From NCBI GenBank assembly GCA_977017645.1, contig OZ360238.1, forward strand, positions 62,434,001-62,498,000: a DNA stretch of 64,000 nucleotides, in the 5' to 3' direction. The position numbers and the translations under genes were made by a program. The DNA is from Torpedo marmorata. Lineage: Eukaryota. Below the pieces are notes generated by a model. The model ran no database searches and had not been told where the DNA came from. It saw nothing but the letters and a program-made list of their open reading frames with translations. Below, piece after piece: positions 2,786 to 59,860 of this stretch. Position 1 is the first letter of the stretch, and every line of letters begins with the position of its first letter.

Positions 2786-4210
2786 AGTAAAACACGAAAA
2801 TCTGCAGACACCGAGGTTGAAGTAAAAACACAAAGCTGTAGAAACTAAACAGGTCAAGCAGTGTCCTTTATATAGCAAAGGTAAAAATACATAACTGACG
2901 TTTCAGGCTTGAGCCCTTCATCAAGGTATGGAAAAATGTCAGCAGGCGTCCGAACAAAAGAGAAGGGTGGGGGGGAGTGGTGGTCGCAAAGGGGATCAAG
3001 GGGAGGAGGGATGGCTAGGTGAAGGGAGGGGGAAGGGAGGGAGGAGAACTGGAAAAGGGAAGGGAAGGGAGGAGGGGGAAGAGGAGAGCAGGCTAGCAGA
3101 AACCGGAAAAGTCGATGTTAATGCCATCTGGCTGGAGAGTGCCCAGACGGAAAATCAGGTGTTGTTCCTCCAATTTGCAGGTGGTCTTGGTGGGACAGTA
3201 CATAAGGTCATGGACAGACATGGGAGTGTGACACAGAACTGAAATGGTGGGCTACTGGGAGGACTCTGTCACTGGTGCGGACGGAGCAAAGGTGCTCAGC
3301 GAAGTGATCTCCCAATCTGCGCCCAGTCTCTCCGATGTAGAGAAGGCCACAAAGGGAGCCCGGATGCAGTAAATCAGTCCTGCAGATACACAAGTGAAGT
3401 GTTGCTTCACTTGAAAGGCCTGTTTGGGACCCCGGACCGAGATGAGGGAGGAGGTGTGGGCGCAAGTGTGGCACCTCCTGCGGGCACAGGGGAAGGTGCC
3501 GGGGAGGCGATTGGTGGGGAGGGAATGAGTGCACGAGGGAGTCACGGAGGGAGCGGTCCATACGGAAGGCAGAGAGGGGAGGAGAAGGGAAGATGTGTCT
3601 GGTAGTGGGATCCTGTTGTAAGTGCCGGAAATTCCGGAGGATATTGTGTTGGATGCAGAGGCTGGTGGGGTGGTAGGTGAGGATAAGGGGGATTCTATGT
3701 TTGTTGCATCTGGGGGCAGAGGGGGCCAGGGCAGATGAGCGGGAAATGGAGGAGATGTGGGTGAGGGCTGAGTTGATGGTGATGGAGGGGAAGCCACATT
3801 TGTGGAAGAAGGCAGACATTTTGGAAGATCTGAACTGGAAGACCTTATCTTGGGAACAGATGCAGCGGAGACGGAGAAATTGAGAGAAGGAGATGGAATC
3901 CTTGCAGGGGACAGGATGTGAGGAATTGTGGTCAAAGTAGTTGTGGGATTTAGTGGGTTTGTAATATCTGTCTCCTTCTCCCGAGAAGGAGACAGAGAGA
4001 TCCAGGAAGCGGAGAGGGTTATCGGAGATGGACCAGGTGAGTTTCAGATTGGGGTGGAAGTTGGCCACGAAGTGGATGAAGTTGACAAGCTCATCGCGGG
4101 TGCATGAGGCAGCCCCGATGTAGTCATCGATATACCGGAGGAAGAGTTGAGGGGTCTTGCCTGTGTAGGCTTGCAGCATGGATTGCTCCACAAAGCCCAC
4201 AAACAGGCAG
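2786..4210 (-). mobile_element. Penelope-like retroelement (RT + GIY-YIG endonuclease), 5'-truncated and frameshifted
   Basis: ORF 3208-4200 with FLRYIDDYIG RT motif; GLIYCIR...LYIGETGRRL GIY-YIG motif; 3' end GTGTTTTAC shared with other PLE copies; flanked by GAGACA at 2777-2782 and 4211-4216. Confidence 0.92.
2890..2930 (-). ncRNA. Minimal hammerhead-ribozyme-like motif in PLE 3' end
   Basis: Reverse complement CATACC-TTGATGA-A-GGGC-TCAA-GCCT-GAAAC-GTC-AGTTATG. Confidence 0.6.
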
Positions 4211-4490
4211 GAGACACTGAGTGTCTGTGGATTCGCCTCCAGTCTCTGCAGCCACAGAGACTCCTGTTTGGTTCATCGGCTCCAGATCCAAACCTCCAAC
4301 ACAATCAGGAAGCCTTCAGCGCCCGAGGCCCTTCAGGAGCCCTTTTTGCCCTCAGTACCCTCTCGAATCCTGGTTCCGATACCTGGTTCCCATGAGCCAG
4401 TTCCAGCAGCCCGCAGCCCGTGCGGGTCCCCTGACCGTAAGTTGCCCGGGGCCTGTGAGGGTCCCTCAGCCGCTGAGCCTGTCTCGTTGT
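4211..4490 (-). mobile_element. Non-autonomous SINE-like repeat (family with GAATCTT tail), interrupted by the PLE; the other piece lies at about 2746-2782
   Basis: Joining 2746-2782 to 4217 onward restores a sequence matching the reverse complement of 63391-63550 and the copy at 5640-5773. Confidence 0.6.
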
Positions 4491-5510
4491 CTGACGAGTT
4501 TGTTATGAAGTCACTCTTTCCAAAGATTCCTGCAGATTCAACTGGCTGACTAATAGCACCCCACTCATGTCTCCAATGATCTTCTCCAAACTAGTTGCAC
4601 ATTGGAAGTTTCTGCTTGTTTTACCAATAACTGTAGTGGTCTCTTTTACTCTAACAGTGCACTTCACTGAGATATTCAGCCCTCCCCTGGCAACAGAAGG
4701 GAGAGGTGGGTTTGTCATCTGGTGAAGTGCTGTCTACCCCTTTAAATGTTTTTACTCTGTGGCTCTGGACCTCAAAACTCCTGCTCTGTATTTAAGCCTC
4801 CTGAATGCATGAACCTAATCTGTTTAAGGCTAAGTTAAACAGATAATGTTGACTGCAGCAGTGGGTGTGGTGATGATAGACAAGGTAATGGTTACAGAAT
4901 TCTGAACCAGGATTTCTATTTCACCCATTTGATTTTTCAAATACAATGACAGGGGTAAGGATAATAAGAGGATATAAGGTAAGAACAAAGTATACATGCA
5001 TAAGAATATATTAACAGTGAGAATAACAAAAAGTGCTGACAAAATTAAAGTTTCATTATTAGACATGGCCTGGAGCATCATGGGCTTCATAGAGCTCTGA
5101 TCTGGGAAGGCCTGCAAACTGGGTAAAATACTTGCTGGAAACCATGGTTCCCTTCCCCCTTCCACCCCTCGACTGGAACAGCAGCTCAATCCCATGAACT
5201 CCACTCTAGCCCAACCCCAATCAGCAGCATTCTTCCAAACCCTGTTGCCCCTTGATTTTTTGAACGTCCTGATTCATCATTATGCCTCAACCTTTTTACA
5301 ACATCCTGCAGACCACCTCTTCCCTTAATCTTCCAACCTCCAGAAACCTTCAGTCCATTCATTAAGTCCTGACACCCAATTCCCAAAAGCACACTACATG
5401 CCTGTTCTCTTCTGCACTCCTGTACCAACCACATTTTCTCCCCAATCACTCCAGATATTTGGCTCTATGGACCGTGATACTGAGCCTCTTGCAGATTTCC
5501 CTGCTTCATT

Positions 5511-5773
5511 ATTCAAGATTCAAGATTCTTTTTATTATCATGTTATAAAACAGGTGTAATATTACACAAAATTGACTTTAGTCTACTATAAGGCAGACAA
5601 AGATTCACCATCAGCAGAAATTGACTGGCAGCCCTTACAGACAGAGAAAGAGAAGTAAAAGACAATCACCTCCAGTGTTCCCGCAGCCTCCGTAGCCACA
5701 CACCCTTCAGTCCAAACCATTGGCAACCTGAGCTCCAGATCCAAACCTCTGACATGATCAGGAAGCCCTCAGC
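5511..5773 (-). mobile_element. SINE-like repeat, GAATCTT-tail family
   Basis: (ATTCAAG)n tail; GCTCCAGATCCAAACCTC and ATCAGGAAGCC blocks shared with 4211-4490 and 63389-63675. Confidence 0.6.
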
Positions 5774-5971
5774 TGCTGTTACATAAAGGACTGCATGGCC
5801 CTATTTTGAAAAAGAATAGGGGAATTGTCTCCATTTTCCTGACTTCAGTTTCTCCTTCAATCATGATTACTGCAATGTATCAAAAAGTTGTAATCACGCT
5901 GTTACTCATGAAATGCACATTAGTTGTCATATTTCTTACACTATCAGAGCAACTGCACTTTGAAGTATTTC

Positions 5972-6645
5972 CAGCATACTAATGTCATCGTGAAGAAAGC
6001 ACGTCAGCACCTCCTCTTCCTCAAGAGCTTGCGCAGGTTTGGTATGACATCAGAAACCTTGGCAAACTTCTACAGATGTGTAATGGATAGTGTGCTGACC
6101 GGCTGCATCGTGGCCTGGTATGGGGTCATCAATACCTCTGAGCGGAAAGCCCTGCAAAAGACAGTGGACACAGCCCAGTACATCACAAGCAAAACTCTTC
6201 CCACCATTGAAAAAATCTTCATGGAACGCTGCCATCGAAGAGCAGCAACAATCATAAAGGATTCACACCACCCAGCACACACTTTGTTCTCGCTGCTACC
6301 ATCAAGAGGTATAGGTGCTACAAAACACGTACCACCAGGTTCAGAAACATTTGCTACCCCTCCACCACCAGACTCTTCAACAACAAACTCAATCACAGAC
6401 GCATTTAAGGACTCTTACTTTGCACATTATTTATTACTATTTTTTTTTCTGTATTGCACAGTCAGTTTGTTTACATTTCTTTCTTTGTTTACATTTCTCT
6501 CTTTTGTATATGTATCTTTTCTTGAGTACAGTTTTTTGCACTACCAACAAGCAGATATTCTGCCTCGCTCGCAGGAAAAAGAATCTCAGGGTTGTATGTG
6601 ATGTCATGTATGTACTCTGACAATAAATCTGAACTTTGAACTTTG
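5972..6645 (+). mobile_element. Rex1/Babar-type LINE 3' fragment
   Basis: KKARQHLLFLKSLRRFG...FYRCV C-terminal region; 3' UTR ending GACAATAAATCTGAACTTTGAAC. Confidence 0.85.
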
Positions 6646-7034
6646 ACTGTCTGCACTGTTGCAAGTCACTTTTTGCACTAGGATTACTGTGAATATTTAT
6701 TAACACTTGCATGCCTGTATTGTCTTTTTTAATTCAATTAGTTTGCTATTCTAGTTTTTCTATGTTCCTGTTGGGCAGCAGCAAGTAAGAATTTTGGGAT
6801 ATGTACAAAATTTGTACAAAGTGTATTACAATTAAATCATTCATTAATTCAAAGAAATCTGCTAAGTTTCCTCAGAGTCTTTTGTGCTCAAGTGGAACAA
6901 TTACTTCTGTCAAGTACCTCCTTTTAATTGTAAAACACGAAAATCTGTAGACACCGTGGTTGAAGTAAAAAACACAAATGCTGGAGAAACTCAGCAGGTC
7001 AAACAGTGTCTTTTATGTAGCAAAGGTAGAAATA

Positions 7035-7075
7035 CATAACCGACGTTTCGGGCTTGAGCCCTTCATCAAAGTATG
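7035..7075 (-). ncRNA. Minimal hammerhead-ribozyme-like motif (left PLE arm)
   Basis: Reverse complement CATACT-TTGATGA-A-GGGC-TCAA-GCCC-GAAAC-GTC-GGTTATG. Confidence 0.65.
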
Positions 7076-7964
7076 AGAAAATGCCGGCAGGCGTCCGAAC
7101 AAAGGAGTGAGGGGGGAAGGGGGATGGCAAAGGCAGGAGATGATAGGTGGAGAAAGGAGGGAGGGGACAGCAGCAAAGAGGGGGAGGAGGGATGGCTAGG
7201 TAGCTGGAGAAAAACAGGAAGGACAGGTGAGGGGGGAGGGGAAGGGAACGACAAGCAGGTTTAGTGGAAAGCAGAAAAGTCAATGTTAATGCCATCTGGC
7301 TGGAGAGTGCCGAGACGGAATATGAGATGTTGTTCCTCCAATTTGCGGGTAGTCTGGGTGGGATAGTACATGAGGCCATGGACAGACATGTGAGTGTGGG
7401 AGTGTGACTCGGAATTGAAATGGTTGGCTACTGGGAGGTCGCTATTGTTGCGGACGGAGAGGAGGTGCTCAGCAAAGCGGTCTCCCAATCTACGACCGGT
7501 CTCTCCAATGTATAGAAAGCCATTCTATACATTGGAGAGACCGGTCGTAGATTGGGAGACCGCTTTGCTGAGCACCTCCTCTCCGTCCGCAACAACAGCG
7601 ACCTCCCAGTAGCCAACCATTTCAATTCCGGGTCACACTCCCACACTCACATGTCTGTCCATGGCCTCATGTACTATCCCACCCAGACTACCCGCAAATT
7701 GGAGGAACAACATCTCATATTCCGTCTCGGCACTCTCCAGCCAGATGGCATTAACATTGACTTTTCTGCTTTCCACTAAACCTGCTTGTCGTTCCCTTCC
7801 CCTCCCCCCTCACCTGTCCTTCCTGTTTTTCTCCAGCTACCTAGCCATCCCTCCTCCCCCTCTTTGCTGCTGTCCCCTCCCTCCTTTCTCCACCTATCAT
7901 CTCCTGCCTTTGCCATCCCCCTTCCTCCCTCACTCCTTTGTTCGGATGCCTGCCGGCATTTTCT

Positions 7965-8005
7965 CATACTTTGATGAAGGGCTCAAGCCCGAAACGTCGG
8001 TTATG
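7965..8005 (+). ncRNA. Minimal hammerhead-ribozyme-like motif (right PLE arm)
   Basis: CATACT-TTGATGA-A-GGGC-TCAA-GCCC-GAAAC-GTC-GGTTATG. Confidence 0.65.
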
Positions 8006-8309
8006 TATTTCTACCTTTGCTACATAAAAGACACTGTTTGACCTGCTGAGTTTCTCCAGCATTTGTGTTTTTTACCTCCTTTTAATTGTTGTTTTTCATC
8101 TCTGGTGTAACACTGTGAAAATTATGCTGCATTTTCACAATTGCTTTCATGTCATATAACATAATTAGCTGTTTCCTGTAAGTTCACCCACAATCATGGG
8201 TGCCAAACATGATAGCAGCTGTGCATTCCACTCTGCCTCCAAAATTCACTTCTGTTAACTTTCGCTGCCTGGAAATACATTTCCAAGCAATACCTTTCAA
8301 TGATGGGGT

Positions 8310-8507
8310 TGTAGTCGCGCTATCGATTAAAGACGCAGAGACTGTGGAGTTGAATCATGGAGTCTTTACTGGATTCAAAACACTGAACTATTCCCGGGGC
8401 GGAAGTGACGTCAGGGCCCTTTCCGGAAATCCCACCCCGAGCGCGTAGTTCCGGATGCCCTGTTGTGTCCAATGGCGGTTTGAGACCCGCGCATGCGCGC
8501 CGCTACA
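8310..8507 (-). repeat. Gypsy 3' LTR
   Basis: Direct repeat of 12304-12511, TG...CA ends, adjacent PPT. Confidence 0.93.
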
Positions 8508-8529
8508 CCACCCCCCCCCCCCAAAAATG

Positions 8530-9750
8530 TCATCGGGGACCTGGATCCCCCATCCTGTGCGTGTTGCTTGGGTGGCCAGCCTCGCTGTCACGGTGCGGCA
8601 CACTTACCGGCTGGTCGGTGTCCAAGTGTGCTGGTTTCAGGCGGTCTATTGTAAAAGTCTCTTGCCGGTCACCCACCTCCACAATGCACGTGGTTCCATT
8701 TCTCTGGATCACCTTGAACGGTCCCTCGTACGGTCGCTGTAGAGGTGACCTGTGTGCGCCCCTGCGAATAAAGACATACTCACAGTCTTACAGGTCCTTG
8801 GGGGTGAAAGATGGTGTTGGACCGTGTTTGGAGGTCGGGACCGGTGCAAGGGTCCCTACCTTGTCCCGCAGTCTCGTCAGCACCGCAGCTGGAGTCTCTT
8901 CCGTACTGCTGGCCTCTGGAATGAATTCGCCTGGTACCATCAGGGGGGCGCCATAAACTAACTCCACGGAGGAACAACTCAAGTCCTCTTTAGGGGCGGT
9001 CCGAATGCCCAGCAGGACCCAGGGAAGCTCATCTGACCAGTTGGGGCCTTTCAGGCGAGCCATCAGTGCCGACTTGAGGTGGCGGTGGAAACGTTCTACC
9101 AGGCCATTGGACTGGGGGTGGTACGCCATGGTGTAATGCAGTTGTGTGCCCAGGAGTTGTGCCAATGCCGACCACAAAGTCGAAGTGAACTGCACCCCTC
9201 TGTCCGAAGTGATGTCCGTGGGTAGACCGAAACTGGCAATCCAGTTGGCGATCAGTGCTCTGGCGCAAGCCTCCGTGGAGGCTTCTGTGAGCGGTACTGC
9301 CTCTGGCCACCTGGTGAACTGGTCCACCATGGTAAACAGGTACCTGTAGCCCCAGGGGACTGGCAGTGGACCGACGATGTCCACATGGACGTATTGGAAC
9401 CTCCTGTCTGGCAGCTGGAACTGCTGGAGCGGGGCCTTAACATTTCGCTGTACCTTGGAGGCTTGGCAGTGAACGCAGGTTCTGGCCAAGTGTCCCACTT
9501 GCTTGCGCAATCCATGCCAGACAAATCTGTCCGCCACGAGTTTAAGGGATGCTCAGATGGATGGACGGGATAGGTTGTGCAGAGTATTGAACACCCGGCG
9601 TCTCCACGCTGCCGGAACCACTGGTCTGGGCCTGTCTGTGGAAATGTCGCAAAGGAGCCGGTCTGCTGCTGGTCTGAAAGGGACGTCCTGTAGCTGGAGG
9701 CCTGAGACGGCGGTGCGATAGGCCAGCATTTCAGGGTCTGCCTGCTGTGC
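8530..9750 (-). pseudogene. Gypsy integrase, largest open part 8788-9537
   Basis: CVHC zinc finger, HVDIVGP, SDRGVQF, NGLVERFHR (DDE); GPF-type motif in the downstream frame. Confidence 0.88.
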
Positions 9751-10055
9751 TGCCGCTAGTGCCGTGTAGTCAATGCCCTAGGACGAGGTGCACATTGAGA
9801 GGAGTGTGGGGCGAGACAGTGCATCGGCGACGACGTTGTCCTTCCCTGCAATGTAGCGGACGTCGGAAGTGAAGTCTGAGATGAACGACAGGTGCCTCTG
9901 TTGCCAGGCTGACCATGGGTCCGAGACTTTAGCAAGTGCGTAGGTGAGGGGCTTGTGGTCCATGTAGGCGGTGAACTCTCTCCCCTCCAGGAAGTACCAG
10001 AAGTGTCAGACGGCCAGGTAGAGTGCCAGAAGCTCTCTGTTAAAAGCACTGTATT

Positions 10056-11831
10056 TTACCTCTGGCGGTCGCAGGTGCCGGTGAAAAAGGAGAGTGGTCG
10101 CCACTGACCCTTGATGAGCTGTTCGAGGACTCCCCCTATGGCCGTTTCGGATGCGTCGACCGTAAGCGCCGTGGGGGCTTCGGCCCTCGGGTGCGCTAAA
10201 AGGGTAGTGTTTGCCAGCGCCTCCTTGGCCTGCTCAAAAGCTTCGTTTGATGCCGTGTCCCAAGTGACGTCTTTGGACTTGCCTGCCATCAGGGTGAACA
10301 AAGGCCTTATTATGTGTGCAGCTGCTAGAACGAAACGGTGATAGAAGTTGACCATACCCACAAATTCCTGCAGGCCTTTCACTGTGGTGGGCTTCGGGAA
10401 CTGGCGAATGGCCTGGACCTTGTCTGGCAGAGGAAAAGCACCATCTTGGTTAAGTCTATGGCCTAAGAATTCAATTTCCATCCGCCCAAACTGGCAATTT
10501 GCTGGGTTAATTGCTAACCCGAAGTGGCTCAGGCGTCGGCAGAGTTGGCGCAGGTGTGCAGCGTGCTCCTGGCATGAGCTGCTTGGCACCAGGATGTCAT
10601 CCAAGTAGATGAAAGCGAAATCTAGGCCATGTCCTACCGAGTCCATGAGCCTTTGGAAAGTCTGTGCCGCGTTTTTCAGACCGAATGGCATCCTCAGGAA
10701 CTCGAAAAGGACGAACGGAGTGATGAGGGCCGTCTTTGGAACGTCATCGGGGTGCACTGGGATCTGGTGGTATCCCCGGACTAGGTCGACCTTAGAGAAG
10801 ATGGTGGCTCCATGCAGGTTCGCTGTAAAATCCTGGATGTGGGGTATCGGGTACCTGTCGGCGGTCGTGGCGTCGTTCAACCTTCTATAGTCACCGCAGG
10901 GCCTCCATCCTCCTGCGGACTTGGGCACCATGTGCAGCGGGGATACCCACGGGCTGTCCGAGCGGCGGACGATCCCCATTTCCTCCATCTTGCGGAACTC
11001 CTCTTTGGCCAGATGTATCTTATCGGGTGGGAGCATGCGAGCTTGGGCATGTAGAGGCGGACCTGTTGTAGAGATGTGGTGCTGCATGCTATGTTTAAGG
11101 CCGGTGGTGGAGCACTGCGGGGTAACGATGGAGGGGAAATCTGCCAAAACCCTGTTGAATTCGTTTCCGGAGAGCTTCACGGAGTCCAAATGGAGGGCTG
11201 GAAGGTTGGCCTCGCCGAGCTGAAACGTTTGGAACGTCTCCGCGTGGACCAACCTTCGGCCTTTCAGGTCGACCAGGAAACCCTTGGCCCGTAAAAGATC
11301 TGCTCCGAGTAATGGCTGTGAAACCACCGCCACCGTAAAAGTCCAAGTGAAACGAGCGGACCCGAAATCTAGCGGAATGGTCCGTTTGCCAAAAGTGCGG
11401 ATGGTTGTGCCATTCGCGGCGGTCAGTTCCGGGCCTAGAGTTGCGTTGCGTGTGTCCATGTTCGAGGATGGGAGGTCGCTGATTTCGGCTCCGGTATCTA
11501 CTAGGAACGCCGCCCGGAGTGCCGGTCCCAAATGTGCAGTAGGCAGTCTCGGTGGCCAGCCATCGCAGCCATTAGCGACGGCTGGCCCTGGCATTTCCCA
11601 GAAACGCACATGGAGGACGGCAGCAGCGTGTGCCCTGGCCCCATCTTTGGTTGTAGAAACACCATAGGCCTGAACCATCATCTTTGTCCCCCGTGGCCTT
11701 TGGCAGTTTCGGTTTTGGGGTTTTGGGGGGCGCGATTGCAGCAAGGCCCAGGGAGGTGGCTTGCCATTGCCTACTCTGCCAAAGGACATCTGCTTTGGCT
11801 GCGACCTTGCGAGGGTCGCTGAAATCCTCAC
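10056..11831 (-). CDS. pol: Gypsy pol: protease, reverse transcriptase and start of RNase H (RNase H continues frameshifted to about 9778)
   Basis: FLVDTGA protease; [16 protein letters not shown] and YLDD RT motifs; [12 protein letters not shown] RNase H; DHKPL and NVVADALSR in the next frame. Confidence 0.9.
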
Positions 11832-12303
11832 TTGCGAAAAGGAGGCGAATGTCCTCGAGCATCTGCTGGAGGAACAGCTGTTCGAATAGAAAACATGGCT
11901 TATGGCCGTCCATGAGTGCCAGCATGTCGTTCATTAGCTCGGACGGTGTGTGATCGCCCGGGCCATCCATCTGGAAGAGCCGCGCGGCCCGTTCGCGGTG
12001 GGAGAGGCCGAAAGTTTGGAGCAGGAGCGCCTTGATCTTAATGTACCTGTCCTCTGTAGGGCGTTGATGGAGGAAGTCAACGATCCGGCCTGCCGTCTCC
12101 TGGTCGAGCGCACTGACCACGTAGTAGTACATCGTGGCATCGGCTGTGATGTCCCTGATGTTGAACTGGGCCTCGGCCTGCTCGAACCATACATGGGGCT
12201 GAGTGGACCAGAAAGTCGGGAGCTTCAGTGAGGCTGCACTGGAACTCATGGTCAATGCTGCTTCTTTAACTCCAGATGCCATCTGGAGCATTGGGGTCAC
12301 CAA
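11572..12303 (-). CDS. gag: Gypsy gag-like ORF overlapping pol
   Basis: [23 protein letters not shown]-terminal motif and C-terminal CFYNQRWG...C knuckle typical of these Gag proteins; lies immediately after the PBS. Confidence 0.85.
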
Positions 12304-12511
12304 TGTAGTCGCGCTACGGCGCGCTATCGATTACAGACGCAGAGACTGTGGAGTTCAATCATGGAGTCTTTACTGGATTCAAAACACTGAAATATTCCTG
12401 GTGCGGAAGTGACGTCAGCGCCCTTTCCGGAAGTCCTGCCCCGAGCGCGTAGTTCCGGTCGCCCCGTTGTGTCCAATGGTGGTTCGAGGCCCACGAGTGC
12501 GCGCCGCTACA
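12304..12511 (-). repeat. Gypsy 5' LTR
   Basis: Direct repeat of 8310-8507 with a 10-bp indel; adjacent PBS. Confidence 0.93.
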
Positions 12512-13415: not shown

Positions 13416-13715
13416 AGTATTCTCACTACTTCTGCACAGAATCCCAATTCTTCCAAATATATCCTTCAAAGATAGAAATCTATTTTTTTTTAATTTTTCA
13501 GACTTCACATCCTTCCCAATTGACAATTAATTCATAACAATCCTATTTATCTCATGAAGTCTGCAGACAATTAGATTGTCCTTATTACTCTGATATTTTA
13601 TGAGGAACATCATGGGAAATATGAATATTCTCACTCTCGAATTAATCATGTTGAAGTGTAAATCCTTAAGGAATTAGTTTCTGCATTTAAGTTTCCTGCA
13701 GGGAATTCACTTCAG

Positions 13716-13952
13716 CACCAATAGCCTGAATACAACTGGGATTGTCTGATCTCAGAAGCTAAGCAGGCACAGGACTGGTCAGTACTTGAAGGGGAGACCG
13801 CCTAGGAACACCAGGTGCTGTAGGTTTCTGTGAGGGGCGCTGGACAAAGTAGCGACCCTCTGTCTGCCTTATGGTAGACAATAATTAAAGAATCTCATGT
13901 ATGTTACATTCTAAATGTAGTATTACGTGACAATAATGGAACCTTTACCTTT
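13716..13952 (+). mobile_element. 5S rRNA-derived SINE (SINE3-type): degenerate 5S head at 13716-13827 plus a LINE-like tail
   Basis: GTCTGATCTCAGAAGCTAAGCAGG...TGGTCAGTACTTG...GGGAGACCGCCTAGGAACACCAGGTGCTGTAGGTTT aligns by eye to vertebrate 5S rRNA; tail ends GACAATAATGGAACCTTTACCTTT. Confidence 0.82.
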
Positions 13953-14522
13953 TATGGTTTAACTGCAGACAAAACTTTGGACATGGACAGCGAGAACAGG
14001 CAAAATGTGAATGGGTTAGAATGACAGATTACTTTACGGACGGCTAAAAACGACAACGGTCAGTAAATAATTACAAGAGTTAGGAAGTCATGATACATTC
14101 GTGCTGAGCATTGGTCAGATTTTAGATGTCTTGTTTCAGTTTACTTTTCCTTTTACTGGTGTCATTGCAGTCCCCTTCACTCAAACCAGTGCAACTCTTT
14201 TTATTACTGCACACATACCATACTTTTACTGCAGCCTGTGTAGTTTCATTTTATTGCTACCTATGTGGCCAAGGTCACTTTTTCTGCTATTTTATAACGT
14301 AGTTTGTGCAATCGCTGCACTATTGTATTTTTGACTTTTCAAAAGTCTTTGCTCTTCATTATTTCCAAGCATTTTGAGAATTTTAGAAATAGCAGGGGTG
14401 GGCCATTTGGCCTCTGATCCCTAGTTAACCATTTATTAAGATCTTAGCTGATCTTTCACTTCAACTCCACTTTCCTCCAATAACCCATAACATTTGATTC
14501 CTTCAACAACCACATATCCTGA

Positions 14523-14556
14523 GTTAATATTTCAGGTTGCTGACCTCTCATCAGAG
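14523..14556 (-). ncRNA. Hammerhead-like motif in an old PLE-end remnant
   Basis: Reverse complement CTGATGA-G-AGGT-CAGCA-ACCT-GAAA-TATT-AAC, with canonical CUGAUGA and GAAA core. Confidence 0.55.
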
Positions 14557-14622
14557 GTCAGGAAACAAAGCTGCAGAGGAGGAGGATTTGTGATCTGATC
14601 TTCAACTTCTGAGCAATTGTAT

Positions 14623-42444: not shown

Positions 42445-42638
42445 AGTAAAACATGAAAATCTGTAGACACCGTGGTTGAAGTAAAAAACACAAATGCTGG
42501 AGAAACTCAGCAGGTCAAACAGTGTCTTTTATGTAGCAAAGGTAGAAATACATATCCGACGTTTCGGGCTTGAGCCCTTCATCAAAGTATGAGAAAATGC
42601 TGGCAGGCGTCCGAACAAAGGAGTGAGGGTGGAAGGGA
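42445..42638 (-). mobile_element. Short PLE 3'-end insertion with hammerhead-like motif at 42551-42591
   Basis: Nearly identical to 6930-7120. Confidence 0.88.
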
Positions 42639-43380: not shown

Positions 43381-45003
43381 CTATAAGCTGATTTTATTGT
43401 CGGACACAGGTTCACCAGTCAGATCTGATATCCAGAGATCTTCAAATCCTTAAACCCACAGTTTTTATATATGTGCTCCATATTTTCAAAAAGAAATGAT
43501 ATTTGTTACATTAATTATAAGTGATTTTTTCAAGTGGTATAGCTGAACGAAGTTCTGCATGCCATCTCTCTAACCCTAAATTTACATCAGACTTCCATGT
43601 AATAGCAATGCATTTCTTAGAAACAGCTAAAGCAATTCGCAAAAATTCTATTTGATACACATTTAATCTCATTTTAGTACTAATTCTTTTAATATCTCCA
43701 GACAGAAATATCATAGGATCCACTGGGAGTGTAATTCTTAATACTTTGTCTAAAAACTTTTTAACTTTCTATCAAAAATCACATATCTTTGGACAAAGCT
43801 ATGTAGAGTGTACAAAATAACCTTTCTCTCTATTACATCTAAAACATAAACCTGATAATGGCGGATTAAATTTCTTTAATTTCTTAGGTGTTAAATATAA
43901 TTGATACAAAAAGTTATATTGCATCAGCCTATATCTAACGTTAATAATCTTCATCATACTTTGTTTACATATTTCTTTCCAATGTTCCTCATCTATCGTT
44001 ACATTCAAATCTGATTCCCATTTTAATCTTGATTTATGAATACCTAATTTAGGCATTTTCCTCTGTAACAATCTATACATTTGAGAAATAAATTTATTTA
44101 CACCTCCATTAGTAACTAATAATTCCAATTCACTTTGTCTTGGTAAAGTCAAACTATAACCCAACCTTTCAACTAAAAATGCTCTGATTTGATAATAAGT
44201 AATAAGTGTATTATTTAATACATTAAACTTCTCTTTTATTCTTTGAAAAGTAATAAATTCACTAGCTTCAAAACAATCATTTATTTTTTTAATTCCTTTT
44301 AAAAACCAAATTTTAAATAATTGATTGTCAATAGTAAATGGAATAAGTTTATTTTGATATAAAGGCATTTTTCGAGAAATTAACCCTTTCCCTCCTATCA
44401 CTTTATTCCATATTTCTAACAAGTGCTTTAAAATAGGAGAGTTTTTACCTCCTCTTAATAGTAATTTAGAATTCCATTTGTAAATAACTTCTTCTTTCAA
44501 ATCTTCTCCTTTGTTATTTAGTTCTATTCTAATCCAAGCAGAAGATTTCATTAATAAATTTTAGTTGAGCTGCTTTATAATAATTTTGAAAATTGGGAAG
44601 TTGTCAACCTCCCATTTCGTAATCCCAAATTAATTTCTCCATACCTACTCTAGCCAAGTTTCCTTTCCACAAAAATTTCCTAATAATTAAATTTAAATCT
44701 TTGATGAATTTTTGAGGAATTTCATAAGGAATTGATTGAAAAATATATTGAATTCTTGGAAATACATTCATTTTAATACAATTTACCCTTCCTATTAAAG
44801 TTAATAGGAAGACTAAAGAACTACAATCTGAAAGTGAATGATCGCGCATGCGCGAAACGGTGCGCATGCGCGATAGAGAACGCGAGCTGTCAGCTAAGGC
44901 TGACGGCAAAAGAAGAGTCCCTCAATCATTTCAATATGATGTGGGACAGGAGTTTTTATCATCAACAGATTCAGAAGACAAAAAGAGAGAAAAAGATGAA
45001 TAA

Positions 45004-45705
45004 ATGGAGGAAGAAATAGAAGAAATGGAGGGAGAGGATGAAGAATTAAATGGAGAGGAGGCTCAATTACCACAGGCTAAACAAGAAATATCAGAGATTT
45101 TGATTAAAGCTATGGACAATTTAACAAAACAAGTGTCAAAGATGAATCAACGCATGGAATTTAGATTTAATGGAATTGAAGAAGTGAGAGACATGAAGCA
45201 AGATATGAAAAAACATACAAATACTGTGGATAAAGTAATATCGAAAGTCTGGAAAATTGAAAAAGATGTTAAAGAGCACTATGAAGAAATGGTGTATTAT
45301 AAAGATAGAGTAGATAAAGTGGAAGACTCATTTACAGGTTGGGAGCAACAAAGAAATGAACTTTTACAAAAAATAGATGTATTGGAAAATCAGAGTCGGA
45401 GAAATAATGTTAAAATCGTGGGATTGCCCGAAGACTTTGAAGGGGTGAACGTAACTGAATTTTTTCAAGAGTGGATTCCACAAGTTTTGGGTACTGATCA
45501 CTTTCCGTATGGACTGGAATTAGATAGACCCCTTAGAGATAGCAGAAAGAAACCGTATCCTGGACAAAGGCCACGTTCAGTGTTAATCAGATGTTTTCGA
45601 TACCAGGATAAAGAGAAGATATTGAAATTAGCTGTTCAAAATGCTAGAATGAACCAGAGTCCATTGATAATTAATAAAAATAGGGTATTTTTTATGCTGA
45701 TCTAA
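45004..45705 (+). pseudogene. L1 ORF1p (coiled coil plus RRM), disrupted
   Basis: LENQSRRNNVKIVGLPE and RPRSVLIRCFRYQDKEKIL motifs. Confidence 0.88.
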
Positions 45706-48239: not shown

Positions 48240-48812
48240 GCGGCATAGCGATGAGAGCCTACTCCCGGCATAGCGCTGATCCCCAGCCACCGGCATAGTG
48301 CTGAGCCCCTGCCCCCGGCATAGCGCTGATCCCTTGTCCCCGGCATGGTGCTGACACCCTGCCCCCGGCTTAGCGCTGAGCCCCTGCCCCCAGCATAGCG
48401 CTGATCCCTTGTCCCCGGCATAGTGCTGAGCCCCTGCCCCCGGCATAGCGCTGATCCCTTGTCCCCGGCATAGTGCTGAGCCCCTGCCCCCAGCATAGCA
48501 CTGAGCCCCTGCCCCCGGCATAACGCTGATCCCCTGACCCCAGCAGAGCGCTGAGCCCCTGCCCCCGGCTTAGCTCTGACACCCTGCCCCCGGCATAGCG
48601 CTGATCCCTTGTCCCCGGCATAGTGCTGAGCCCCAGACCCCGGCATAGCGTTGACACCCTACCCCCAGCTTAGCTCTGACATCCTGCCCCCAGCATAGCA
48701 CTGATCCCCTGTCCCCGGCATAGCGCTGATCCCCTTCTCCTGGCTTGGTGCTGAGCCCCTGCCCCCCGGCATAGCGCTAAGCGCCTGCCCCCGGCAGAGC
48801 ACTGAGCCCCTG
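48240..48812. repeat. GC-rich minisatellite, 25-bp unit with two variants
   Basis: GCCCCTGCCCCCGGCATAGCGCTGA and TCCCTTGTCCCCGGCATAGTGCTGA, about 22 units. Confidence 0.92.
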
Positions 48813-49574
48813 CTCCTGAATGCCTGAATTGCCTTTGCCAACAGGTAAGGCTGGAAGCAAAGTTTACCTCCTGTCAAATCTGAGAATAATTTTATCCGGT
48901 TTTGCATGTGATTTTCATGTTTGAAAATTATAAAAATTGTTTGAAATGGTTAAGAATAATCTTTAAAAAATTAAGGTAAAATAACACAATAATGAAATTA
49001 AATGAAACAAATAAAAAAATATCTTGTTTCTTTCCCCATGTTGAAAAGAATGTGATCTCTGATCCCATACCAGGTCTAACTAGTGAAGGACCACTCTTCC
49101 CCATCCCTCTGACTTCTTTCCTCCACCTCTCCACCCCCTTCCCTCTCCATTCACAGAGCCATCCCTCTCCTCCTGTTTGCTGGTGTTCCCTCCCTCCCTT
49201 ATCCACCTATTACCTCCTGCTTGTGTGACTGTTCTCCTCCCCCTGATCCTTCCCCCCCACCACTGTTCCCTCTAAGCTGTGCGCGCGTGTGCGCGGGCAC
49301 ACACGTTTTGCAACCAGCGCACAAAGGAAATTAATGTGCGCACAAAAGGTTAGTTACCTAAAATAATGTAGTAATTAATAATTATACTAATTGAAAATAA
49401 TCTCTTAGCTAACTGTTTCTGTTAACTAGTTAGTAGTTTATTCAAATACCACATTTGCACATCACTAATTGACGTCATCTCACCTTTCCTGTTCCGGTTT
49501 GTACAGCTGCAGCACCTACATAAACTGTGCTATGTGTGAAGCATCTGGATAGTTTGTCAACCAGCTTTGTAATT

Positions 49575-52352
49575 TTTTTTAAATATTTTACTTAAAATTT
49601 GTAAATCACAGAGTACATAATATAAAATGCAAATTATCAAAATACATGTGATACATTTTCACCCCCCCCTCCCTCCCTCCCCCCACTCTAACCCTCCCAC
49701 CCTTACCAATCTACTAAAATAAAAAAGAAGAAAGAAAGAAAGAAAATAAAGTAAGGAGAATGTCAATCTAAAAAAGAACAATTATAAACTAATTTTATTG
49801 TGGAAGGTAGGTTCGCCAGTCAGATCTGATATCCAGAGATCTTCAAATCCTTAAACCAACAGTTTTTATATATGGGCTCCATATTTTCAAAAAGAAATGG
49901 TATTTATTACGTAAATTATGTAATTTTTTCAAGTGGTATAGCTGAACGAAGTTCTGCATGCCATCTTTCTAACCCTAAATCTACATCAGATTTCCATGTA
50001 ATAGCAATGCATTTCTTAGAAACAGCTAAAGCAATTCGCAAAAATTCTATGTGATAAATATTTAATTTCATAATACGAATTCTTTTAATATCTCCAAACA
50101 AAAATATCATAGGATCCATTGGGAGTGTAATTCTTAATACTTTGTCCAAAAACTTTTTAACTTTCAACCAAAAATCATATATCTTTGGACAAAGCCAAGT
50201 AGAGTGTACAAAAGATCCTTCCTCTCTATTACATCTAAAACATAAACCAGATAATGTCGGATTAAATTTCTTTAATTTTTTTTGGTGTTAAATATAATTG
50301 ATGAAAAAAATTATATTGCACTAGTCTATATCTACCATTAATAATCTTCATCATAATTTGTTTACATAATTCTTTCCAATGTTCTTCGTCTATTGTTACA
50401 TTGAGATCCCCATTTTAATCTTGATCTATGAATTCCTAATTTAGGCATTTTTTTCTGTAACAATCTATACATTTGAGAAATAAATTTATTTACACCTCCA
50501 TTAGTAACTAATAATTCCAGTTCACTTTGTCTTGGTAAAGTTAAACTATAACCCAACCTTTCAACTAAAAATGCACTAATTTGATAATAAGCAAAAAGTG
50601 TATTGTTTAACACTTTAAACTTTTCCTTCATTCTTTGAAAAGTAATAAAATTACTAGCTTCAAAACAATCATTTATTTTCTTAATTCCTTTTTGGAACCA
50701 AATTTTAAATAATTGATTATCAACAGTAAATGGAATAAGCTTATTTTGATACAAAAGCATTTTTCGAGAAATTACCCCTTTCCCTCCTATCTCCCTATCC
50801 ACTCTATTCCATATTTCTAACAAATGTTTAAAAATAGGAGAATTTTTCCTTCTTGTTAATAGTAATTTAGGATTCCATTTATAAATAACTTCTTCTTTCA
50901 AATCTTCTCCTATATTATTTAATTCTATTCTGATCCAAGCAGAAGATATTCCTAAATCAAACATTTCATTAATAAATTTTAATTGAGCTGCTTTATAATA
51001 ATTTTGAAAATTGGGAAGTTTTAAACCACCCATTTCATAATTCCAAGTTAATTTCTCCATACCTACTCTAGCCAACTTTCCTTTCCACAAAAACTTCGTA
51101 ATAATTAAATTTAAATATTTAAAACATTTCTGAGGAATTTCATAAGGAATTGATTGAAAAAGATAGTGAATTCTTGGAAAAACATTCATTTTAATACAGT
51201 TTACCCTTCCTATTAAAGTTATAGGTAAATCCTTCCAACTTTCTAAATCTTTTTTAATATTCATAAATAATGGTAAATAATTTAATTTATATAAATTAGC
51301 TAATTTTGTATCTATATTTATTCCCAAATATTTAATTCCTTCCTTTGACCATTTAAATTGTGTAATTTCTTTACATTTATTATAATCCCCTTATGTCAAT
51401 GCCATAATTTCACTTTTATCATAATTAATCTTATAACCAGATATTTCCCCATATTCTCTCTATAAAACATTCAATTGTATTAAATAAGTAATAGGTTTTG
51501 TCATATAAATCAATACGTCACCTGCAAATAAACTAATTTTATGCTCTTCTCTTCCAACTTTAATACCTGCAATCTTAATATCTTGTCTAATTAATTCTGC
51601 CAAAGGTTCTATTGCTAAAATGAACAATGCTGGCAACAAAGGACATCCTTGTCTAGTTGACCTAGTCAAAGAAAATTTTGAAGAAATGTGTCCATTTGTC
51701 ACCACTCTAGCAGAAGGTACTTTAAATATAGTTTTAATCCAATTAATAAATGTAGTTCCAAAACCAAATTTCCCCAATACTTTAAATAAATAATTCCACT
51801 CTAATCTGTCGAAAGCCTTTTCGGCATCTAATGTTAATACTAATGCTAATTCCTCTTTTTTTGTGCCACATTTATTAAACTAATTAATCTAGCTATATTA
51901 TCCTTTGAATATCTATTCTTAATAAAGCCAGCTTGATCTACATGGATTAAATCTGGTAAATATTTAGCCACTCTATTTGCTAAAATTTTTTCCATTATCT
52001 TATAATCCACATTTAACAATGAAATTGGTCTACATGATTCTGTTTTTAACACATCTCTATCTTTTTTAGGTATAACTGTAATTATTGCATTTGAAAATGT
52101 TTCCGGTAGCGAATGAGTTTCCGTTATTTGTTTCAACACCTCCATATATGGAGTTATCAATAAATCCTTAAACTCCTTATAAAATTCTGATGGGAAACCA
52201 TCCTCCCCTGGAGATTTTCCACTCGTTAAAGAACTAAGAACATCATTGACTTCGCTCATCAAGAACGACATATCTAAAAGTTTTTTCTTTGAGTATTTAA
52301 TCTAGGTAACTTAATTTTAGATAGAAATTCATTACTTTTAGAATCATCTTTA
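49575..52352 (-). mobile_element. L1-clade LINE, 5'-truncated, inside the hAT element
   Basis: RT motifs in ORFs 51846-52271, 51460-51777 and 50362-51327; TSD AACCAGCT(T/C)TGTAATT at 49559-49574 and 52353-52368. Confidence 0.93.
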
Positions 52353-52444
52353 AACCAGCTCTGTAATTGAATGAGTTTTGATTTAACCATTTCCAGCAAC
52401 ATTAATAATAATAATCTGTGAATTGATGGGTGTTATTGTTATTA

Positions 52445-53423
52445 CCGTATATTTTGGCATATGAGTCGACCCCCCTTTTTCAGCCTCATTTTAATGGTTT
52501 TATTGTATATCCAGTGTATAAGTTGACCCCCAATTTTCGGGCTGTCCGGGCCTCCCAGCAACAACCCAAAATTTGTTACAACACCCCAATCACCAAGTAA
52601 CAAAGCTGTAAATTAAGCAAGTAAGTGAAAAAAAAAACAGTAAAAAAAACCTTTGCTTCTGGCCGGGAAGATGCCAAACGGAGCTGGGTCCAAGTCTTCA
52701 GCTTCGGCTGCAGCCAGAGTCGGCGACGGCGACTCCATTCTCCATATCGGGTGCTGTGCCGTCCTCATCGAAGAAGTTGCCTCGCTGCCCAAGTGTGCTC
52801 GGTGCAGGAACCATGGCTACATGTCGGCTCCCGGACAGGAGCAGTGGCCTCGTTCTCCCGGGCAGGTGCGGCGACCTCGTTCTCATGGGCAGGAGCGGCA
52901 ACCTCGTTCCCCCGTGCAAGAGTGGCGACCTCGTTCTCCTCAGCAGAAGCGGCGACCTCGGCTTACGTGGCAGGAGTGGCGACCTCGTTCACCCGGCAGG
53001 TCAGGAACGGACTCGGACTACGTGGCAGGAGCGGGAACCTCACCCTACCAGCCAGGAGCCTCGGCTTACCGGGCGGGAGCGGCAACCTCAGGCTCCTGGG
53101 TAGGAGCGGGGACCTCGGGTTCTACAATTGTAGAATGTCTGAGTGGTTTATGGCGGCGCCCGGCGGTGGGGAGTTGTCGGGGAGCAGCGGCGCCGGCGGT
53201 GGGGAGGTGCTTCCAGGGTCGACCTATACGCCAAATCACTTTTTCATGGGTCGACATACGCCGAATCGGGTTTGCAAGGGTCGACTTATACGCCGAATCG
53301 GCATGGAGTAGTTTTTGAGCTGATTTTAAGGTCTCAAAAGTATATCCGGCGTATAAGTCGACCCCCGTTTTTTGAGAGATTTTTGAGGGTTTCAAGACTC
53401 GACTTATACGCCGAAATATACGG
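52445..53423. mobile_element. Tc2/pogo-type MITE (Tc1/mariner superfamily) with GC-rich internal repeats
   Basis: TA|CCGTATATTTTGGCATATGAGTCGA ... TCGACTTATACGCCGAAATATACGG|TA; subterminal GTCGACTTATACGCC repeats. Confidence 0.88.
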
Positions 53424-55294
53424 TATCACATAAAAATAAGAAATACTCATTGATGTTTTATTTAATGGAACAACAAACTGAAGAATAATAGAATAATAGA
53501 ATAATAGAATAAAATCTTAACTAAATACGTTACTTCGCAGAATGCAATCCTACTTGTATTATATTAAAACATGCCAATACAGTTTTATTAGCCATGAGAG
53601 ATCGGCTGTGCCAAAATGATCTTGAAACAATTTCAAGTTTACATTTGCACAAGCATTCAGTGCGCACATACTTTTGTCACAGGAAAACAAATTGCACAAC
53701 ATAAGATTTTTGCGCACACTGACTACTAAAAATTAGAGGGAACATTGCCCCCCACCAGTTTGTTTGGGCGCCTGCCTACATTTTGTCCACACCTTGATGA
53801 AGGGCTCAAGCCCGAAATGTCGGTTATGTATCTTTATCTTTGCTATATAAAGTACACTGTTTGACCTGCTGAGTTTCTACAGCTTCGTGTTTTTCCTTCA
53901 ATCACAGTGTCTGTAGACATTTGTGTTTCACTCCTTCCCACAATTATTGTCAGGCCTTCACCACTGAGCTGCTGTCTTGATTTACTCCAAGGAGCCAACC
54001 ACGGAGAGAAGCAACAGATGCACTGGCATTTGACATTTGGCTTGCTTTGGGCTTGCCCAAGGTTCATGCTAGTGTGGAACTTCCGAATGTGGGAATGGCC
54101 GATGGTTTGTTTCAGAATTGACATCCACAACCAGCGTGCCACAACCCACTGAATAACTGAGCTTGCTTAATGTTAATATGTCACTTATCGCATTCTTATC
54201 CTGTTCTAAACACTGATTACAATATTATATTGGAGGCATCAAGCCACTGCTTATTTGTAAAGTTGCCCTCCATTTTCTTCAATGTTCACATTATTTTATA
54301 TTTTCTAAGTATTTGAACAATATCATTCTAATTGCTTAAAGCTTAATATAATTGTTACCTGTGTGTTTTTCCTTAGTGTAATGCTCTTTACAGACTTAAC
54401 CAACACTGTTTTTATTGTGATAGAAATAAGAACTGCTTCAAAACTGTGTTGAATGGCAGCCTAATCAAAAATCAATAATTCCACTTGAAAAGACCCAATA
54501 TGCTATGTTGCGGATTATGTAATTTGATAATATCAATCATAATTGAGTTACATGCAATTCATCTGACTTCCAGTGCATTGAGGTCAGCAGGGGCCACAAA
54601 GCCTCACTTCCCATCAATTACCACATATTAGGTGAGCTCTGGTTTCTCAGAGCATTTCCACTGAAAGTCTGCCTCTATAAATAATATTAAGAGGCACAGC
54701 AAAGGCAATCAATAGAATATAGTTCTACTGTCACCGCTTTAATGGCAGCTGTTATGCCTTGCAGTTTGATCAATACTCAGTCTCCTCAGACACAGACTGA
54801 AACCACAACATCCAGAGGCAGAGTAAATGACACCTTTTGTTATGATTCAGGGTATGACAGAGCATATCAGTCTTCAAGTCAGTTACTTCTGACAAAAGGC
54901 ATTATGTGAAAGTGTATTCTATAAACCACAAAAGCCTGTGGCTCTATTGCAAGCTATAGAATCAGTATATACAGCATCACCAAGCATATGTCCTGCTGGA
55001 ATCTGCTTGAATAGTAGCAGATTGATCTGTGAGGACATTGAATTGGGCTGAGAATCAAGCGCAGAAACAGAAATCAATATTGTATTAGAATTACCAATAA
55101 CCCATATCAGAAGTGATTATCCTTTTTTTACTAAAAGGGTCTGGTTTGAAATCAGAAGCATTGCAGCATTGCATTCGACACACTGTTTAAAAAAAAGTAA
55201 TGTGGCTCTACAACAGCAAGCTTTTGTTTCCATCTTGATAGAATTTGTGGAATAGTTTAGGAGTACGACAAAATTAGGTTGCATATTTATTGTG

Positions 55295-55475
55295 TAGTAC
55301 CCAAAAGTACTGGAGAAAGTCAGCAGGTCACACAGCATCCAGAGAAAGTAAAAGGCAATCAACGGTTCGGGCCTGAGCCCTTCTTCAGATGTGCTGAAAA
55401 TCAGGGAGATGCCAGAATAAGGTGGGGGGAAGGGGGAGGAGCACTGGCTAAGAGGGGAATACAGGTAGGAGGGGG
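55295..55475 (-). mobile_element. PLE 3'-end remnant with hammerhead-like motif at 55356-55393
   Basis: CTGGAGAAAGTCAGCAGGTCA block; reverse complement CTGAAGA-A-GGGC-TCAG-GCCC-GAACC-GTT. Confidence 0.7.
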
Positions 55476-56141
55476 AAGTTGCATTCATTTTTGTAATTGT
55501 TTTAAAGTAAATCTGAATCAACACACAGGGAACATGATTTTATGAAATCAAACTGACAACCACAACACTTTCAGTTGAGGAACTTCAGATAAGGTCCCTA
55601 GTATCAACAGTGGAGTACGTTTCGTACCATGAGATATCATTCTAGTTGGAGAACTCCCATCTGTGCAGTCTCTTATAAGCCACAGGTCGATACTATATTG
55701 AGACATGAGCATAAACTGAGGTGTTAAAACTCTTCAGAAATTATCCATTGATAAAATTATTTCACGCTGTGATAGGTGGATGACCAAGACCTATTGACAG
55801 ATTCAGAAAGTTACCTTTCTCAGTTGGCCTGCAGCTGGATGCTACATTGAATTGAAGAGTAGGGCCCAATCTTGGTGAGCTTCCACAATGTTGCGTTGGG
55901 ACCCTGTTGATTTAAGATGCAAATTTATTTTGCTTAGGCTTAATATTTTGTTTTAAATATTTGTCTGAGTTTTAATTATCTTAACCTTTTATTATTTCAG
56001 CTTTTATAGTTTTTAAATGTTTCTGAATTACCACAGTCCTCCAGCTAAGGCTCAGTGGCTCTTTGGGCCTTGTGTATGTGGGGACAATGACCAGGATTTC
56101 TGAAAGCAAGCATATTCCAGCAACATTCATCCAGTTTTATT

Positions 56142-56815: not shown

Positions 56816-56869
56816 CTCATTTATATTATATTATACTTATATTAACTATTCCTGTTAATTTGTCGTCTC

Positions 56870-58023: not shown

Positions 58024-59650
58024 TTGTTGACTTCAGGAAGGGAAAACTAGAGGTATACAATCCAGTGATCATTGGGGGATCAGAGGTGAAGAGGGTGAGC
58101 AAATTTAAGTTCTTGGGAGTCACTATCTCAGAGGATCTTTCCTGGACCCAAAACACTAATGGCATCGTGAAGAAAGCACATCAGTGCCTCTACTTCCTCA
58201 GGAATTTGCAGAGGTTTGGTATGTCACCAGAAACCCTGGCAAATTTCTACAGATGTGTGGTGGAAAGTGTGCTGACCGTCTGCATCACGGTCTTGTATGG
58301 GGACACCAATACCTCTGAGCGTAAAGCCCTGCAAAAGGTAGTGGACAGCCCAGGACATCACAGGCAAAACCCTCCCCACTATCGAGAACATTTACAGGGA
58401 ACGCCGCCGTCGGAGAGCAGAAGCAATCATCAAGGATCCACACCACCCAGTACAGGCTCTGTTGTCACTGCTGCCATCAGGAAAGAGGTATAGGTGCCAC
58501 AAGACTCACACCACCAGGTTCAGGAATAGCTGCCACCCCTCCACCATCAGACTCCTCAACAACAAACTCAATCAGGGACTCGTTTAAGGACTCTTACTTG
58601 TTCACTTTATTGATTTTTTTATTCTCTCTGTATTGCACAATTTGTTTTTATTCGTTATCTGTTTACAGTTCTTTATTTGTTCACACCAGCAGCAATAGAA
58701 ATTCACCAAGAGACTATTATTGTTTTTCTTTTAAAACAATATATTTATTAATAACTTCTAATAATATAACACATTAACTAAATTAACCCAAATTATGCGC
58801 GAATATACTTATGTGTGTGTGTGTGGGATACCCAAACCATTACAGCTCAGGCACAATTCTGGGAAGTCATTCCAAAGTTCAGTTTTAGAAATCCTGTGTT
58901 GAAACTCAGACTTTTAAACTGATGCCCAGAAGTAATCATGAAGGAGGTGGGAGAGACTGAGTGACTGGACTGCTGAAAACTTATGAATCCTTGTCGAGTT
59001 TCTTCCTGAGAAATGTTCTTTTCGGACGAACGGTTGTCACCACTCCCCTTTCCTTGCGTAGGGGAAACGAAACAAGTGACTTCCACGATGCTTCCAAACC
59101 CAGGCACAGGTCAGTTGAAATGACAATCATCTTGATTCGATGCAGCAATTCTCCTGCTTCCTTTACCCAGATACGGGTCAATCAAAGTGACCTTTCCTTT
59201 GGTCACAGTGGTTCAATAATTCCCCTGACAGGGAGAATCAGTTGAATTGTCCATTTCACACAGAGTCACTCCACCAGTCATCAGATGGCTGGTGGTCAAT
59301 AATGAATGCTGTTTCTTTAAGTGTCCCACTCACATGACTCTCTCACCACCTGTTTACCTGGATAAACAACCATTGTTCTTTCTCTTCCACCAGAGTATCA
59401 ACTTTAGGTATAATCTGTACTTGATGGTGCCATCCAGTCTCTCCACAACTGTGAATGGTTGCAGTCTGCACTAACCCTTAAAGTGACAGTCACACTAAAT
59501 GAAATGGGAGCTCATAATAACATGAATACTCTGTGCACAGTTTTTTTGCACTACCAATAAGTGGTAATTCTGCTTTGTCCGCAGGAAAAATAATCTCAGG
59601 GTTGTATGCGATGTTATGTATTTACTCTGACAATAAATCTGAAATCTGAT
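58024..59650 (+). mobile_element. Rex1 LINE 3' part, split in its 3' UTR (pieces 58024-58685 and 59521-59650)
   Basis: ORF 58065-58493 FKFLGVTISEDLSW; the 3' UTR resumes at 59521 as in the copy at 62940-63090. Confidence 0.87.
58686..59520. mobile_element. About 835-bp non-coding insertion, possibly a solo LTR
   Basis: Interrupts the Rex1 3' UTR; possible TGTT...TAACA ends; AATAAA on the minus strand; no clear TSD. Confidence 0.4.
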
Positions 59651-59654
59651 TTCA

Positions 59655-59860
59655 CTCCATTACAGACATTCCCTTTGTTCCATCGATTGCTCTCCTCTAC
59701 TTTCTCTGCCACCTCGACTAACTTGCTTTCTCTCTTTCTTAGTTCTGATGAAAGGTCTTCAACCTAAAATGTCAACCATTTCTCTTTCCACAGAGGTTGC
59801 TTGACTGGCTACGGTTTTCCCATAAATTTCTGTTTTGATTTCAGATTTCCAGCATCTCCA
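59655..59860 (+). mobile_element. Old PLE-end remnant with hammerhead-like motif at 59742-59776
   Basis: GTT-CTGATGA-A-AGGT-CTTCA-ACCT-AAAAT-GTC-AAC, followed by a decayed PLE terminal block. Confidence 0.6.

Follow-up and report, generated by a model that had tools for sequence, protein, structure and literature searches.

Penelope-like elements (PLEs) carry minimal type I hammerhead ribozymes, for which a dimer model and low activity have been described (PMC4209133). As set out in that report, the motifs lie on the sense strand of both pseudo-long terminal repeats (pLTRs), have a UGA-N-GA box with an extra base, a G10.1-C11.1 pair and a palindromic 15.2-16.2 segment without a loop 3, and occur as numerous scattered single copies derived from truncated elements, with several subfamilies per genome. 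All of these traits are shared by motifs in a 64,000-nt stretch of the Torpedo marmorata genome (assembly GCA_977017645.1, contig OZ360238.1, forward-strand positions 62,434,001 to 62,498,000), referred to here as the window. In the 3' pLTR of truncated PLE copies, the motifs probably form minimal type I hammerheads; they are likely weak, dimer- and protein-dependent self-cleavers in the parent elements, with insertion likely from uncut RNA. The arrangement of such hammerheads in PLE pLTRs is already published (PMC4209133), and the unusual feature is a dominant wobble core. The 56 rows of Fig. S3 in that report include no cartilaginous fish. Cleavage by PLE hammerheads is weak and not needed in vitro. 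The Torpedo genome has a graded series of subfamilies from the canonical C3-G8 to the wobble core, which has more than 60,000 exact copies, and a genome-scale sign of uncut templates; comparing the subfamilies would tell if cleavage was tuned, was lost or gave way to a structural role.

All ten hammerhead-like sites of the earlier note were found within about 30 nt of where it had placed them, with hammerhead position 3 at 2924, 7069, 14554, 29302, 42585 and 55388 on the minus strand and at 7971, 26301, 53794 and 59745 on the plus strand. A family-agnostic descriptor (N-UGA-N-R-A, a stem II of at least four pairs, GAAA, a pairable 2-nt segment, U and H) passes eight of the ten, against a mean of 0.1 matches when the window is dinucleotide-shuffled 30 times. 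The covariance-model search proposed in that note, run with a model trained on 36 natural copies (five from the window), recovers nine of the ten at E values of 6e-15 to 4e-8 and nothing else in the window below E 0.99. It misses the 14554 copy, which has almost no relatives, with five matches in the genome, and whose 38 nt are 92% identical to an old-family copy. The Rfam search, also proposed there, finds no hammerhead family at E<=10 in the window, a result that is uninformative because the motif has no stem III. The GAAAC-GTC string is exact in six; the other four are decayed, 53794 at 15.2, 55388 at A15.1 and 59745 at G12, while 14554 reads ATAT. Seven of the ten copies have U3.G8. In correction of that note, coding sequence is still present in four of the ten copies (2924, 7069, 7971 and 26301), and the 7069 and 7971 motifs belong to a single inverted insertion, whose target duplication spans about 15 nt. 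The window contains dead fragments alone, insertions under neutral decay.

The anatomy of the motif fits the consensus given in PMC4209133 feature by feature, which upholds the identification of minimal type I hammerheads in the PLE 3' pLTR. The motif consists of UGA-N-GA with a single additional base, a stem II that is short, GAAA, a palindromic ACGU, H17 and stem I, and the ACGU, correctly proposed as the replacement of stem III, is present in every family majority. Across eight subfamilies, the majority sequences do not differ at U4-A6, G8, A9 and G12-U16.1 (positions 3 and 7 excepted), while their flanks have a mean identity of 0.31-0.47. In the endonuclease region, identity to family A is about 65-75% in D and 35-65% in E and F. 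Compared with the hammerheads of PMC4209133, the Torpedo motif has a stem II of just four pairs and a bulged stem I. The extra A after A9, formerly taken as a deviation, is not one, because the extra base is listed as conserved in PMC4209133 (consensus CUGANGAH); it is an A in 54 of the 55 covariance-model matches in a held-out sample of 600 kb outside model building. Two compensatory swaps had been claimed for stem II. The swap at 10.4-11.4 (C-G to U-A) stands at the family level, in 12 of the 36 rows, whereas 10.1-11.1 is mostly a G.U wobble (18 G.U and 5 A-U, by hand count, in the 23 five-nt-loop copies among the 100 matches listed first out of 351). Stem II has one clean compensatory swap, and stem I has two or three double-sided pair changes. 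The claim of at least three PLE subfamilies also stands, and the window count is higher, at least six.

As had been noted, the U3 of the young families does depart from the canonical core. These families lack a Watson-Crick 3-8 pair, which is present in the older C3 families E, F, G0 and H; another older family, J, has a different stem II and likewise U3. The exact young core has 62,577 genomic matches, with U3 in all of the first 100 listed, and a broader C3 pattern spanning several families has 1,510. The held-out sample has U3 in 48 and U3.G8 in 42 of its 55 matches. Extrapolation from two 600-kb samples, with 47 and 55 covariance-model matches, gives a genome-wide total of roughly half a million motifs, well above the 4,000-9,000 given for coelacanth and Xenopus in PMC4209133. 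That report highlights U3-A8, the better known natural variant (PMC4209133; PMC3088659), whereas the dominant Torpedo families are U3.G8; a single U3.G8 row, Saccoglossus kowalevskii 1, appears among the 56 of its Fig. S3. A literature search for U3-G8 hammerheads by name was empty, Lunse et al. 2017 and the supplements of bioRxiv 10.64898/2026.07.22.740005 lying outside it, and a search for shark Penelope hammerhead ribozymes gave no relevant paper. The wobble core is rare in print and dominant in the T. marmorata genome.

G0 differs from the young group by one inserted base, and stem I is re-paired in a shifted, bulged register. A slipped stem I register that would pair U3 was considered and rejected, its predicted stability in A and D1 being about 1.8-1.9 kcal/mol below that of the bulged register. 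It is conceivable, though rather unlikely, that U3.G8 is a selected, attenuated core with two origins, by substitution in J and by a one-base insertion, stem I shift and re-pairing in G1, C, D, B and A. The two origins are inferred, because a tree of 93 nt of downstream sequence separates the subfamilies and is too short to give their order. If this proposal were true, the U3 families would have become the genome's most successful ones, with all remaining catalytic letters kept. The motif would then be a tuned, protein-switched ribozyme that remains inactive while insertion takes place, and the large subfamily series would serve as a natural experiment on the purpose of PLE hammerheads.

The motif host is, to judge by its predicted protein, an abundant protein-coding PLE of the Neptune/Nematis type, with a reverse transcriptase (RT) and a GIY-YIG endonuclease. 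The 6.2-Gb genome has 101,168 candidate matches to a 167-residue RT piece, and 20 of the 150 matches listed were picked for long open frames (the long loci). P0002, a single open frame of 1162 residues, has RVT_1 at 692-836 (Pfam E 2e-4) and, at its C terminus, GIY-YIG at 1067-1097 (E 1e-3), and the coding copies in the window match it at 58-95% (tblastn). The linker C-x4-C-x2-C of P0001 and P0002 agrees with the CX2-5CxxC linker described for Neptune and Nematis (PMC8557442). Also in common with these endonuclease-containing PLEs, as described in that report, are the C-terminal GIY-YIG, the DKG motif, 5' truncation, an inverted 5'-truncated partner and a tail at one end. The Torpedo element has an open reading frame (ORF) with RT and C-terminal GIY-YIG, partial tandem pLTRs, the inverted 5'-truncated partner and an optional tail of 30-40 nt; its assignment is by features alone and is to Neptune/Nematis jointly, not to one of the two clades (PMC8557442).

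A pLTR-ORF-pLTR structure with the motif in each pLTR is found in four of the 20 long loci (L021, L030, L034, L040), and the two motifs of the tandem loci are on the same (sense) strand, 3.1-4.1 kb apart. PAc, a Poseidon-clade PLE of the green anole, has the same tandem structure and optional 30-40 nt tail (PMC11167929). As described there, the 3-8 pair of PAc is C3-G8 and the PAc ORF begins within the motif, whereas the likely main ORF start in Torpedo is about 180 nt past position 3, about 150 nt past the predicted cut, and the Torpedo protein has the Cys linker. At the pLTR-ORF junction of L030, L040 and L021, an ATG within the core opens an upstream frame of 17 codons. The N-terminal part of the ORF contains proline-rich repeats of about 57 nt (L023:3500-5746 oriented, L022, L030, L040), and one of these copies has an additional 2-kb tandem expansion there. 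The 3' ends of 28 copies lie at +100-107 or +128-140 from position 3, two groups about 35 nt apart. A small hairpin is predicted about 45-65 nt past the predicted cut in all four subfamily copies folded (8044-8061 and equivalents in the window). Located just before the 3' ends, this modelled hairpin could be a protein-binding or priming signal.

The fragment at 36853-36933(+), absent from the earlier note, is an eleventh piece of the family, 81 nt of family A with no core. A genome-wide junction count was made because the 5' end of this fragment lies exactly at the predicted cut. Among 85,707 exact anchors, the predicted cut has 121 foreign-letter junctions and a single control offset of +6 has 105, by patterns that detect only junctions with three mismatching flank letters. 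On inspection of 30 junctions each, 21 were true at the cut and 28 at the control, and none of the 30 at the cut runs on into an ORF. The two sites are equal after correction for flank chance (0.28 versus 0.34). Copies beginning at the predicted cut are therefore not in excess over the control site among the genome-wide anchors, which points to mostly uncut templates, and the 36853 fragment was rejected as a fossil of cleavage. The upstream pLTR of the tandem loci begins before the predicted cut. In PMC11167929 uncut RNA is the main substrate, cleavage is dispensable in vitro and the tail reflects two RT starts; inserted PAc templates cut at the hammerhead are likewise not evident in that report. 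Insertion likely used RNA that was not yet cut. A fixed transcription start near -47, seen in L030 and L034, was dropped, with two of 27 unselected 5' ends at -60 to -41.

The proposed life cycle would begin with transcription from the upstream pLTR, yielding a two-motif RNA. Pairing of the ACGU palindromes and a swap of the stem I arms would then build two cores. Lunse, Weinberg and Breaker reportedly described PLE hammerhead variants in 2017 that have a short stem III and cleave as dimers. Reverse transcription would start at either tail end, 75-110 nt downstream of the motif, and its frequent early stop would leave the short motif-bearing ends.

These short ends had been likened to a non-autonomous retroposon family, and a family of their own, SINE (short interspersed element)- or retrozyme-like, is an improbable explanation for them. 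An unselected sample of 1.2 Mb, taken as 120 stretches of 10 kb, has 28 young-family copies, of which 17 begin past the stop codon; of the 27 5' ends that could be mapped, 14 lie in the interval from -60 to +35 relative to position 3. Retrozymes derived from pLTRs have also been described (bioRxiv 10.64898/2026.07.22.740005). However, the 28 copies have no common 5' end, their starts being spread from upstream of -2000 as far as +70 relative to position 3, eight of the 14 clustered ends are inversion junctions, which are typical of PLE insertion, and in sequence the short copies do not differ from the ends of coding copies. Among the 12 best matches of the 29302 copy, endonuclease sequence lies nearby in 11 (all but the window copy itself) and directly upstream in nine. 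Subfamilies D and E form nested truncation ladders with endonuclease sequence upstream; F has upstream endonuclease sequence in two of 12. Unlike retrozymes or ribozyme-bearing SINEs, the short ends have coding relatives and no fixed ends, and the window has no motif-bearing head-to-tail arrays. The copy structure largely refutes a separate family, and the short ends are, on their sequence, copies of the coding element that stopped early. The pile-up of 5' ends across the motif may come from stalling at the fold. Less probable still is a coincidental likeness to hammerheads, in which one repeat family happens to hold the right letters. The empty Rfam search would agree with it, as would the fact that ten copies of related elements are not ten events, but the core is constant while the flanks diverge, there are compensatory changes, and the pLTR position and the anatomy fit the published PLE consensus point by point. 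This family-level pattern refutes coincidence.

Several points weigh against the reading of the motifs as hammerhead folds of a protein-coding PLE and as weak self-cleavers in the parent elements. The identity of the core is partly built in, because the copies were gathered with a core pattern that allows three changes. Although none of 500 shuffles reaches the double-sided pair counts (10.4-11.4 and two stem I pairs), in the training alignment and in 54 distinct held-out copies alike, these tallies cover related sequences and not independent events, and seven of 500 shuffles reach the held-out covariation score. The RT and GIY-YIG scores of P0002 are both under the curated Pfam cut-offs. Deep mutational scanning of a different hammerhead gave low activity for all single changes in the equivalent motif, C3U included (PMC9901934). 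The family A dimer is predicted at -15.1 kcal/mol against -25.0 for two folded-back monomers, in which U3-G8 is paired off, and this gap is about 10 kcal/mol per two molecules in A and about 1 in the older C3 family E, in a comparison that left out the C and D1 rows (decayed copies). It is likely that the weakened 3-8 core pair makes the young-family motif a poor cutter. A possible but less than probable alternative is that the young-family ribozyme is catalytically dead, with its fold retained as a signal for protein binding or reverse transcription, or in early decay in parents that do not need it. The loss of a Watson-Crick core pair to U3.G8, the competing rod predicted to bury the family A core, the loss of one stem I pair in subfamily D2 and the lack of an excess of copies starting at the cut are all consistent with a dead ribozyme. 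Cleavage mutants also insert normally in vitro (PMC11167929), and Naiad elements thrive without hammerheads (PMC8557442). Against it, the remaining catalytic letters are fixed across the five U3 subfamilies (A, B, C, D, J) while N7, loop II, H17 and the flanks have varied, stem I has paired changes between A and D, and a binding role is not obviously expected to preserve the exact catalytic letters. The related PAc ribozyme cuts only with the protein of the element present (PMC11167929). The chance that the U3 families retain a residual, assisted cleavage activity is about even. Contigs of four sequencing runs contain the PLE family, the RNA origin of these runs being mostly guessed.

Head-to-head pairs of short ends are common (L068, L074, L029, L036, L265), their junction preceding the motif by no more than about 70 nt. 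A 27-bp minisatellite of at least 320 units is present at L202:1314-10000 (G000:C1, about 705.8-714.5 kb). Its unit comprises the young-family cut site, the stem I 3' arm and the following bases, with no catalytic half, and it resembles an array of the hammerhead substrate strand.

The window copies with coding sequence include a 5'-truncated, frameshifted subfamily B2 copy at 2783-4218(-), with the RT C-terminal part, Cys linker, GIY-YIG, pLTR and tail, which aligns to P0002 residues 784-1161 at 58-71% (tblastn). Its hammerhead (2889-2932, -, 54.9 bits) has U3.G8, a G.U at 10.1-11.1 and position 1.1 decayed to A. The inverted insertion is of subfamily A, with a left arm at 6930-7522(-) that has the GIY-YIG end, pLTR and a tail of about 35 nt, and a right arm at 7523-8078(+) without a tail. 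The arms of 556 nt are 99% complementary, and the target duplication is at about 6917-6931 and 8075-8089. Both arms have a young-family U3.G8 hammerhead of 54.9 bits, at 7034-7077(-), where the rest is canonical, and at 7963-8006(+), with the predicted cut at 7998/7999. A 5'-truncated subfamily A copy at 25372-26442(+) encodes the linker and GIY-YIG (Pfam E 8e-4), followed by pLTR and tail, and is 92% matched to P0002 by tblastn. Its young-family U3.G8 hammerhead (26293-26336, +, 54.9 bits) lies about 195 nt past the stop codon, with the predicted cut at 26328/26329.

The non-coding PLE ends are of subfamily D at 29203-29486(-), with a U3.G8 hammerhead at 29267-29310 and a weak stem I, subfamily A at 42444-42637(-), with a U3.G8 hammerhead at 42550-42593, and subfamily B at 53748-53935(+), with a U3.G8 hammerhead at 53786-53829 in which 15.2 is decayed. 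Two others have C3-G8 and approximate ends, an older one of subfamily E at 55310-55480(-), with the hammerhead at 55353-55396 and A15.1 decayed, and an old one of subfamily F at 59650-59866(+), with the hammerhead at 59737-59781 and G12 decayed. The remnant at 14518-14562(-), of about 38 nt, is from an old C3 family with a 5-nt loop II and A-U at 10.1; it has no pLTR flanks, and a competing hairpin is predicted on folding.

Other repeats in the window include a broken Tc1/Tc3-type transposase at 1302-2319(+) (Pfam HTH_Tnp_Tc3_2, E 1e-11) and frameshifted gag-pol-integrase frames at 8788-12330(-), which appear, from their translations, to belong to a Gypsy-like LTR retrotransposon. A decayed 5S rRNA-like stretch at 13708-13826(+) (49.7 bits) may be a pseudogene or the head of a 5S-derived repeat. 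Four related L1/Tx1-like LINE (long interspersed element) copies, 89-99% alike and on both strands, are at 22672-24300, 32181-35347, 43385-45705 and 49784-52301, and many CR1/L2-like fragments occur across the window, both groups being named from translations. GC-rich tandem arrays are present at 48241-48813 (period 25, 23 copies) and 52828-53000 (period 27, six copies).

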